NCBI GenBank assembly: GCA_034189695.1 | Contig: JAXHUA010000165.1 | Coordinates: forward strand, 1 to 48,041 | DNA length: 48,041 bases | Direction: 5' to 3' | Source of the DNA: Chloroflexota bacterium | Lineage (GTDB): Bacteria > Chloroflexota > Dehalococcoidia > E44-bin15 | Part shown: positions 38,172 through 38,698 of the stretch, piece after piece | Position numbering within the stretch: position 1 is the first letter of the stretch | Layout: each line of letters starts with the position of its first letter | Position numbers and translations under genes: made by a program | The notes under the pieces: model-generated | Told to the model about the DNA's origin: nothing | What the model saw: the letters and a program-made list of their open reading frames with translations, nothing else | Database searches by the model: none

Positions 38172-38537
38172 ATGACCCTGCAAACGGAGTTTGAATTCGA
38201 GTTGCCTCGGGGCTTCGTGGACAGCGAGGGCAACCTGCACAAGAAGGGAACGATGCGCCTGGCCACGGCGATGGACGAGATCGCTCCCCTGCGCGACCCT
38301 CGGGTGAAGTCGAATCAGGCCTATCTGGTGATTATCCTGCTCTCGCGGGTGATCACCCGATTGGGATCGCTGAGCGACGTGAGCACCAAGACGGTCGAGG
38401 GGCTTTTCTCCGCGGACCTGGCCTTCCTCCAGGACTTCTACCGGCGCATCAACGAGAACGGCACCAGCGCCGTCGCGGCAACATGTCCCGAATGCAACCA
38501 CGTGTTTGAGGTGGAACTCAGCCGCCCGGGGGAATAG
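38172..38537 (+). CDS. Tail assembly chaperone-like protein (gpG analogue)
   Basis: FELPRGFVD.EG.LH..G.MRLATA.DEI, DLAFLQDFYRRIN, CPEC. Lies directly after the tube gene. Confidence 0.85.
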   Translation: MTLQTEFEFELPRGFVDSEGNLHKKGTMRLATAMDEIAPLRDPRVKSNQAYLVIILLSRVITRLGSLSDVSTKTVEGLFSADLAFLQDFYRRINENGTSAVAATCPECNHVFEVELSRPGE

Positions 38538-38575
38538 GCGGCTACCCCCTCGACCAGTTGTACGAGGAGGTAGCC
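38525..38575 (+). other. Putative programmed -1 ribosomal frameshift signal
   Basis: CCCGGGGGAA (C CCG GGG and G GGG GAA heptamers) before the 0-frame TAG, then a 12-bp stem-loop at 38540-38575. Confidence 0.75.
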
Positions 38576-38698
38576 TACGTCGCCTACTACTTCCACTGGC
38601 CGCTGCAGCACATCCTTGAACTGGAGCACGCCGAGCGTCGCCAGTGGGTGGATGAGATCGGCAGGATCAATACGAGGTTGAGCGAGGTGAGCGCCTAG
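38531..38698 (+). CDS. DUF6760-like ORF in the -1 frame (gpT analogue), absent from the ORF track
   Basis: GIGGYPLDQLYEEVAYVAYYFHWPLQHILELEHAERRQWVDEIGRINTRLSEVSA*. The only near-5' start is a TTG at 38558, without an SD and inside the hairpin loop. Confidence 0.8.
   Translation, partial: GIGGYPLDQLYEEVAYVAYYFHWPLQHILELEHAERRQWVDEIGRINTRLSEVSA

Follow-up and report, generated by a model that had tools for sequence, protein, structure and literature searches.

A predicted hairpin-stimulated -1 ribosomal frameshift linking a chaperone-like protein to DUF6760 in contractile injection system loci

The end of a small gene in a contractile injection system (CIS) cluster raises the question of how the DUF6760 domain encoded immediately beyond it is translated. 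The gene lies in a 48,041-nucleotide contig of a Chloroflexota bacterium (JAXHUA010000165.1, assembly GCA_034189695.1; this whole stretch is hereafter the window), in which a sheath-sized open reading frame (ORF) and, by profile scan, tube, Pvc16_N, AAA ATPase, spike, Baseplate_J and eCIS_core genes lie together as a CIS cluster of the lineage II type. Directly after a tube gene comes an ORF for a 121-aa protein resembling tail assembly chaperones (TACs); DUF6760 is encoded in the -1 frame at its end, and the next gene specifies a DUF4157 protein. That tail assembly chaperone genes undergo a -1 shift is textbook knowledge, and a preliminary description of this DNA had proposed such a shift here. 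We consider it probable, at roughly 0.85, that the locus yields a 121-aa chaperone and a 175-aa chaperone-DUF6760 fusion through a hairpin-stimulated -1 ribosomal frameshift, in the manner of G/GT of lambda and E/E+E' of P2.

The chaperone gene and the overlapping -1 frame

The zero-frame ORF (38172..38537, + strand) ends with CGC CCG GGG GAA TAG, its stop codon occupying 38535-38537. The 121-aa product matches the PHROG family phrog_508, annotated 'tail assembly chaperone', with E 1.5e-6, and the same family matches 28 of 28 aligned relatives at E<=0.01 (best E 1.1e-9). Because phrog_508 matches but the Pfam TAC families do so only below their cut-offs, we classify the protein by sequence as a distant TAC relative. 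The family is extensive and highly conserved: of 8000 candidates scored, 7999 reached E<=0.001, and the best 120 relatives are 120-133 aa long, one of them named 'phage tail assembly protein' by NCBI. The AlphaFold2 model of the chaperone was poor (pLDDT 68.3, pTM 0.28) and was not used further; Foldseek with this poor model against BFVD gave no match at E<=0.001, and a sequence search of solved structures returned nothing relevant, the best hits being zinc fingers at E 0.27. The C-terminal end (residues 105-110) has an invariant, ribbon-like CPxC (Cys105, Pro106, Cys108) that zinc-ribbon profiles match weakly; since there are just two Cys, metal binding is uncertain. Neither the chaperone nor DUF6760 had a relative in a tblastn search of 50,697 phage records.

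The -1 frame is open from 38510 to a TAG at 38696-38698 and reads ...PPGGIGGYPLDQLYEEVAYVAYYFHW...; the extension proper spans 38531..38698 (+ strand; 54-55 codons and the stop). It matches PF20546 (DUF6760) with E 1e-13 and 51.6 bits, against a gathering cut-off of 27, over profile positions 7-52 of 89, which bears out the earlier suggestion of an open, DUF6760-like frame through the site. Also as noted earlier, the conserved part begins 5' of the only nearby start codon. This TTG (38558..38560, + strand), the sole canonical start in the -1 frame, lies in the loop of the hairpin described below, five codons 3' of a conserved Tyr, and the PF20546 match begins upstream of it.

The AlphaFold2 model of the extension (38534-38695) has three helices, with pLDDT 89.2. 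Foldseek with this model returned no match at E<=0.001 in PDB (three at E<=10) and none at that threshold in BFVD. The top three BFVD entries were small uncharacterised proteins of metagenomic myoviruses (probability 0.93-0.98, TM 0.68-0.77), and 3 of the first 31 BFVD matches were annotated as tail assembly or tape measure chaperones; phrog_10636, a family of unknown function, matched the DUF6760 of the window with E 0.0041. The extension may be of phage origin, for which the BFVD matches are a lead only. A complex prediction for the tube protein and DUF6760 scored 0.00 and gave no verdict, speaking neither for nor against binding.

At the junction of the two frames, re-reading of the sequence recovered the 121-aa ORF, two overlapping heptamers and a stem-loop exactly where they had been described. 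The proposed slip site, G_GGG_GAA (38528..38534, + strand; GGG in the P site and GAA in the A site), is in phase with the zero frame. So is C_CCG_GGG (38525..38531, + strand), a canonical X_XXY_YYZ heptamer that overlaps it and is a possible second site. After a 5-nt spacer (38535-38539) follows the stem-loop (38540..38575, + strand), in which GGCUACC/GGUAGCC forms 7 bp and CCUCG/CGAGG forms 5 bp on either side of a 1x1 mismatch, closed by a 10-nt loop. The segment 38535-38585 folds at -25.5 kcal/mol (z -4.59), a stability that none of 200 dinucleotide shuffles equalled. The 3' arm of the hairpin (38563-38575; columns 42-54 of alignment A2) is itself strongly Shine-Dalgarno (SD)-like, GAGGAGGUAGCC, and encodes a conserved Glu-Glu-Val-Ala.

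Frame, slip site and hairpin across loci

To follow up the suggestion that the junction be extracted from many CIS loci, we compared 141 complete loci with adjacent chaperone and DUF6760; slip-site, start-codon and hairpin counts refer to the first 108 of these. PF20546 was sought in 401 genomes of the phylum of the window and found in 34, giving 30 loci. Chaperone alignment against GTDB, with one genome per species, found relatives in 596 of 600 stretches, of which the best 80 were kept, and the same approach in IMG/VR gave 15 loci. A further 20 loci came from DUF6760 alignment in the genus of locus L101, whose record is titled Streptomyces; there the domain was found in 65 of 121 sampled genomes. 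One locus (L009) is from a genome marked as unpublished; none of the claims depends on it. By record title, the GTDB set covers Chloroflexota, Acidobacteriota, Myxococcota, Cyanobacteria, Bacillota, Actinomycetota, Planctomycetota, Nitrospirota, Thermodesulfobacteriota and Pseudomonadota as well as six archaeal records; the latter include Methanosarcinales and one isolate, Methanosarcina sp. DH2.

Of the 141 complete loci, 139 have DUF6760 in the -1 frame relative to the chaperone gene. By set, this was the case for 30/30 loci of the phylum, 78/78 of the GTDB loci (those with a nearby match among the 80), 12/12 from IMG/VR and 19/20 from Streptomyces. One further locus (L084), cut by a contig end, reads like the -1 loci. 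Three related, low-GC IMG/VR loci (L141, L142 and L144) have the chaperone and no DUF6760 match; in these, a short GGAATTTTAAGGGA-like word is repeated after the stop.

An in-phase X_XXX or X_XXY_YYZ site occurs in the overlap, within the last ten codons of the chaperone ORF, in 108/108 loci. In ten-codon background windows inside the same genes any such site was found in 166 of 1040 (16%), and a canonical heptamer, present in 67 of the 108 terminal windows, in 2.9% of control windows; the junction features thus exceed chance. The earlier designation of the slip site stood in part. The G run, as G_GGG_N, is in phase in 99/108 loci at a fixed distance 5' of a conserved aromatic-x-HW motif (60 nt in 93 loci, 63 nt in 5 and 57 nt in 1). 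The conserved site is G_GGG_GRR rather than C_CCG_GGG, which recurs in only 11/108. Among the 108 loci the heptamers were GGGGGAA (45), GGGGGGG (29), GGGGGGA (14) and GGGGGAG (6). The remaining nine loci have U_UUU_UUR-type sites or, in L002, C_CCU_UUA. The type of site shifts with lineage while its phase and place stay constant. The distance from the site to the domain, read in the -1 frame, does not vary, whereas the zero-frame stop falls anywhere from 4 to 43 nt past the site's first base. No upstream SD-like stimulator was found at a conserved position across the loci. In Bacillota loci (L085, L095, L105, L107, L110, L068, L093 and L102) the U_UUU_UUR-type sites that replace the G run sit 15-18 nt further upstream; in L102 a linker of about 60 residues separates its U_UUU_UUG site from DUF6760.

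The preliminary description had also called for a covarying hairpin, and the helix proved to be kept with compensating changes. In relatives the hairpin starts 5-6 nt past the site and takes the form of two alternative helices, depending on lineage. When the structure of the window was counted on a gap-free alignment of the 108 junctions, 80.2% of cells were paired, compared to 33-57% when the 3' partners were slid by 1-3 columns. Double-sided changes occurred in 45 cells, whereas shuffles gave 19.6 and none of 500 attained the observed number; the covariation score was 0.159 versus 0.107. Compensation is exemplified by column pairs 30-43 (CG 55, GC 17) and 19-54 (GC 56, CG 8). Split by class, RNAalifold gives a consensus within classes: 85 loci share the GCUAC.../...GUAGC helix, and 15 loci, including the Streptomyces type, have another 10-bp helix, CGUACGCG.../...CGCGUACG, in the same place, which accompanies a change of Gly-Tyr-Pro to Thr-Tyr-Ala. 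Loci with U-rich sites are mostly without a strong helix at the standard place. Over all loci, 46-nt junction windows averaged -19.4 kcal/mol compared to -11.0 for 1426 windows inside the chaperone ORFs; z was below -2 at 82/108 junctions, and in 68/108 no control window from the same gene was as stable as the junction.

Coding constraint in the -1 frame begins at the same point. The codon that immediately follows the G run in the -1 frame specifies Ile, Val or Met in 83 of the 91 loci in the standard register, through 15 different codons, and the zero-frame codon overlapping it is a stop in 32 loci, Ser in 39, Leu in 8 and something else in the rest. Since these residues are kept across 15 codons, protein-level selection in the -1 frame starts at the site. 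In 54/108 loci the -1 frame has no ATG, GTG or TTG from its closest preceding stop up to the conserved Tyr, and in 26/108 the sole starts are 15-24 codons further upstream, deep within the chaperone ORF. The upstream -1-frame stop comes as near as one codon 5' of the slip site (5 loci); that it never lies 3' of the site follows from how the count was constructed.

As a control we used genomes with the chaperone alone. The chaperone was found in 53 of the 401 genomes of the phylum, and all 34 DUF6760-positive genomes are among those 53; the control comprised 20 stretches (L111-L130) from 19 chaperone-only genomes. In none of the 20 was an in-phase G run combined with an open -1 frame. A small ORF with its own ATG near the chaperone stop comes next in most of them, 15 times in the +1 frame and twice in the -1 frame; no such ORF was found in the other 3. 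The pattern named earlier as refuting a frameshift, a variable frame with an independent ATG, is thus confined to a different small gene in loci that lack DUF6760. In 17 of the 20 stretches the small ORF carries a motif like IDIERLAEKVY.LL..E.RL..ARG.

Proposed mechanism and competing explanations

In the frameshift model, the majority of ribosomes would read ...CCG GGG GAA, stop at the TAG at 38535 and release the 121-aa chaperone. A minority, delayed by the hairpin 5 nt downstream, would slip back one base on G_GGG_GAA: tRNA-Gly would re-pair perfectly from GGG to GGG, and tRNA-Glu from GAA to GGA with one G:U pair. The same re-pairing logic has been set out for GGGGGAA in phage chaperone genes (PMC10885494). 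The slipped ribosomes would bypass the stop and append the 54-residue, three-helix DUF6760, giving the 175-aa fusion. A tandem slip would continue in the -1 frame from 38534 with Glu at the junction, ...SRPGE-IGGYPLDQLYEEVAY... (...RPGE-IGGYPL...); a slip in the P site only, or on C_CCG_GGG, would continue from 38531 with Gly, ...SRPGG-IGGYPLDQ.... The chaperone part shared by both forms would handle the tape-measure-like or DUF4157 proteins encoded alongside, the extension would supply a second contact, probably with a different tail component, and the ratio of the forms would be set by the rate of shifting. By analogy with lambda G/GT, the short form would be the major product and the fusion would carry the second binding activity.

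One competing reading is that DUF6760 is a separate small protein whose translation begins at a non-canonical start or, through coupling or re-initiation, close to where the chaperone ORF stops, with the G run acting as an SD-like element. GGGGG can indeed pair with the anti-SD sequence, Pfam lists DUF6760 as a family of its own, and its profile begins about 6 residues before the Leu of the window. Moreover, 28/108 loci have a GTG or ATG 1-3 codons 5' of the conserved Tyr, often in a GTGA overlap. The 19 loci of the Streptomyces genus also show a GTGA overlap, and the distant locus L145 has an ATGA overlap; coupled re-initiation, or separate translation of DUF6760, is therefore possible in those lineages, and the earlier view of DUF6760 as an extension rather than a standalone gene is qualified to that extent. 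However, where such starts exist, the G run is only 3-4 nt away, too close for an SD, and the 54 loci without a canonical start 5' of the conserved part speak against a separate protein. In the window, the TTG lies 24 nt past the G run, within the hairpin and 3' of conserved residues. In 14 loci the zero-frame stop comes 19-43 nt past the first base of the site, beyond the Tyr-Pro codons, and re-initiation there would therefore lose Tyr-Pro. Finally, a truly independent small gene, as in the loci that lack DUF6760, has its own ATG and a variable frame. Taken together, we regard a separate protein as improbable.

The same overlap could produce a fusion by another route, if RNA polymerase slipped on the G or U run and added one base to some transcripts. 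The homopolymers (5-8 G, or 5-7 U in Bacillota) invite this idea, and an extra base in the mRNA would lead to the same protein. Yet most runs are of just 5 G (GGGGGAA in 45 loci, GGGGGAG in 6), and the transcriptional slippage known from bacteria needs longer runs of A or T. C_CCU_UUA in L002 contains no run beyond three identical bases, and a conserved hairpin at 5-6 nt is a hallmark of ribosomal -1 shifting, so we give polymerase slippage very little weight. Equally hard to credit is the idea that the run and hairpin serve pausing, mRNA stability or control of downstream genes with no fusion made, or that the overlap reflects an assembly error or a decayed gene. Homopolymers are error-prone, and the two loci that break the pattern, L040 and L149, differ in exactly the G run. 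Against this, the frame is the same in 139 of 141 independent assemblies, which cover many methods and phyla, constraint on the -1-frame protein starts right at the site, and the second frame break of L040 points to read errors. Contigs from two sequencing runs (X1 and X3) span the stretch with no indel in the G run, both of which may be from the source sample; identical contigs from runs X2 and X4 do not bridge the run. Phase variation by DNA slippage was set aside because 139/141 loci share one frame.

Other observations weigh against the frameshift reading itself. Shifting, its rate and the partners of each part are what we infer from the observed features and their conservation. G-rich heptamers are less slippery than the most slippery sites known. 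The loci are related rather than independent, so the support is weaker than the raw counts suggest. With all 108 junctions pooled, RNAalifold returned no consensus structure, and the helix is visible only per lineage or when a named structure is counted. The chaperone scores 13.7 bits with Phage_TAC_7, the P2 gpE family (cut-off 25, E 0.064), and 12.2 bits with Gp41_Mu (cut-off 27, E 0.2). No in-frame chaperone-DUF6760 fusion was found among longer DUF6760 proteins in a search that was weak (10 candidates, 1 match) and is not evidence that fusions are absent. One 184-aa protein (P0121) was rejected as a natural fusion, as it consists of DUF6760 followed by unrelated sequence with no similarity to the chaperone. 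Two loci depart from the -1 frame. L040 reads chaperone and DUF6760 in one frame; we take it to reflect long-read assembly errors because a second frame break lies within DUF6760. In L149 a run of 4 G instead of 5 places DUF6760 in the +1 frame, by either a read error or a mutation. In both, homopolymer read errors and real variants are indistinguishable.

Known systems, significance and gene neighbourhood

The closest parallel is the lambda pair gpG/gpGT, tail assembly chaperones made by a -1 shift at G_GGA_AAG. As in lambda, two overlapping ORFs directly follow a tube gene, the genes behind them being possibly of the tape-measure type; the second ORF lacks a start of its own and is read in the -1 frame, a heptamer lies near the end of the first ORF, and the predicted short and extended products share the N-terminal chaperone part. 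Unlike in lambda, the pair belongs to a non-viral injection system that also occurs in archaea, the extension is the three-helix DUF6760, a strong hairpin is conserved, and a DUF4157 gene and a second tube gene separate the pair from the large Ala/Pro-rich gene. No sequence similarity to gpG or gpT came to light, no comparison aimed at it having been made. For lambda, a role of the assembly chaperones in tail initiation has been discussed (PMC8718954).

The chaperone pairs gpE/E+E' of P2 and gp41/gp42 of Mu are also known to use a -1 shift. They share with the CIS pair a contractile tail, the weak Pfam similarity given above and a clearer match to PHROG 508, but the Pfam scores are below cut-offs and the CIS chaperone has the ribbon-like CPxC at its C-terminus. 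E. coli dnaX, which shifts -1 on A_AAA_AAG with an upstream SD-like element and a downstream hairpin, likewise combines a bacterial heptamer with a hairpin after a short spacer and yields two products with a common N-terminus. The shifted product of dnaX is shorter, whereas that of the CIS would be longer, and the CIS loci show no conserved upstream SD-like element.

GGGGGAA is reported as a TAC frameshift motif in the actinobacteriophage genomes of SEA-PHAGES; the heptamer is identical and the same G:U logic applies to tRNA-Glu on GGA, but the genes described there are those of siphophages with Actinobacteria hosts, while here the motif is kept across many phyla in cellular CIS loci (PMC10885494). 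We also considered a CIS 'plug' identity (Afp6/Alg6) for DUF6760. Like DUF6760, the plug is small, partly helical and encoded among CIS tube and spike genes; Alg6 is a structural protein that stands alone and begins with an N-terminal strand (PMC8894135), and most lineage II systems are reported to lack Afp6 (PMC6899500). No similarity between DUF6760 and the plug came to light, no comparison aimed at it having been made. DUF6760, in contrast, is startless in half of the loci and tied to the frame of the chaperone, and the plug idea was set aside because start codons are missing and the frame is fixed.

A full-text literature search found no paper mentioning DUF6760 and none linking CIS with a programmed frameshift or a tail assembly chaperone, the co-mentions being reference lists or unrelated; most subscription journals and supplements were outside its coverage, so neither result is proof of absence. 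The available text of CIS papers makes no mention of a chaperone or frameshift. New here, as read from sequence, would be that CIS have the shift arrangement, that its extension is DUF6760 and that archaeal cases exist. DUF6760 would become identifiable as a chaperone extension reached by frameshifting; as half of the loci cannot start it, gene callers will miss or truncate it. A phage hallmark, the -1 shift in TAC genes, would be retained in cellular CIS from at least 10 phylum-level groups by record title, archaea included.

The position of the pair beside DUF4157 genes makes particle assembly and length measuring in CIS a testable question. In the S. coelicolor CIS cluster the tape-measure gene is stated to be absent (PMC12237407), and the DUF4157 proteins of Streptomyces CIS have been described as tape-measure-related (PMC11126660), a view that the position of the pair fits. 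In CIS engineering, where rebuilt clusters assemble poorly, a missing shifted product could be the reason. A broader proposal is one that we put forward tentatively and hold somewhat less probable than its opposite: that the chaperone-DUF6760 frameshift is a universal and hitherto unannotated assembly factor of DUF6760-type (lineage II) CIS in bacteria and archaea, in which the fusion would link tape-measure-like DUF4157 proteins to the growing tube and the shift rate would set the stoichiometry. Under this proposal, systems now thought to have no tape measure would rely on a chaperone and a tape measure as phages do, and in archaea (Methanosarcina, ANME-2 and others) the shift would rank among the most widespread -1 ribosomal frameshifts.

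Around the pair, the tube protein gene directly 5' of the chaperone gene (37700..38152, + strand) matches PF06841, Phage_T4_gp19, with E 8.7e-35, and the eCIS_core (DUF4157) gene directly 3' of DUF6760 (38719..39393, + strand) matches PF13699 with E 9.9e-23. A second tube paralogue (39409..39846, + strand; PF06841, E 7.4e-48) is followed by a gene for a 559-aa Ala/Pro/Gly-rich protein (39856..41535, + strand), itself 5' of the tube-initiator and spike genes. Scans with Pfam and NCBIfam gave no family match for the 559-aa protein and no match to a tape-measure family among the genes of the window; the 559-aa protein is a possible tape-measure-like candidate. Further 3' the profile scan identified a CIS_tube gene (41555-42280), a VgrG-like spike gene (42293-43945; Phage_base_V/GPD) and, after it, Baseplate_J and Tail_P2_I genes. 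On the 5' side, the AAA ATPase gene (27991-30201, profile scan) is followed by two genes for eCIS_core/DUF4157 proteins within 30215-35189, the Pvc16_N gene (35217-36035) and the sheath-sized ORF (36133-37683), which was assigned by its size and was not itself profile-scanned.

With the gene at 38719-39393, the cluster holds three eCIS_core (DUF4157) proteins. One protein in the 5' group (517 aa, 33636-35189) has no Pfam match and contains an HExxH-like MHEYTH stretch. The product of 38719-39393 ends ...VERLAERVYRLMREELALARQR... and that of 39856-41535 ends ...IDRLAREVYAVLKRRLAWERERS..., both resembling the small-ORF motif of the chaperone-only loci; by this sequence likeness, such an end may be a docking tail shared by DUF4157 or tape-measure-like proteins.

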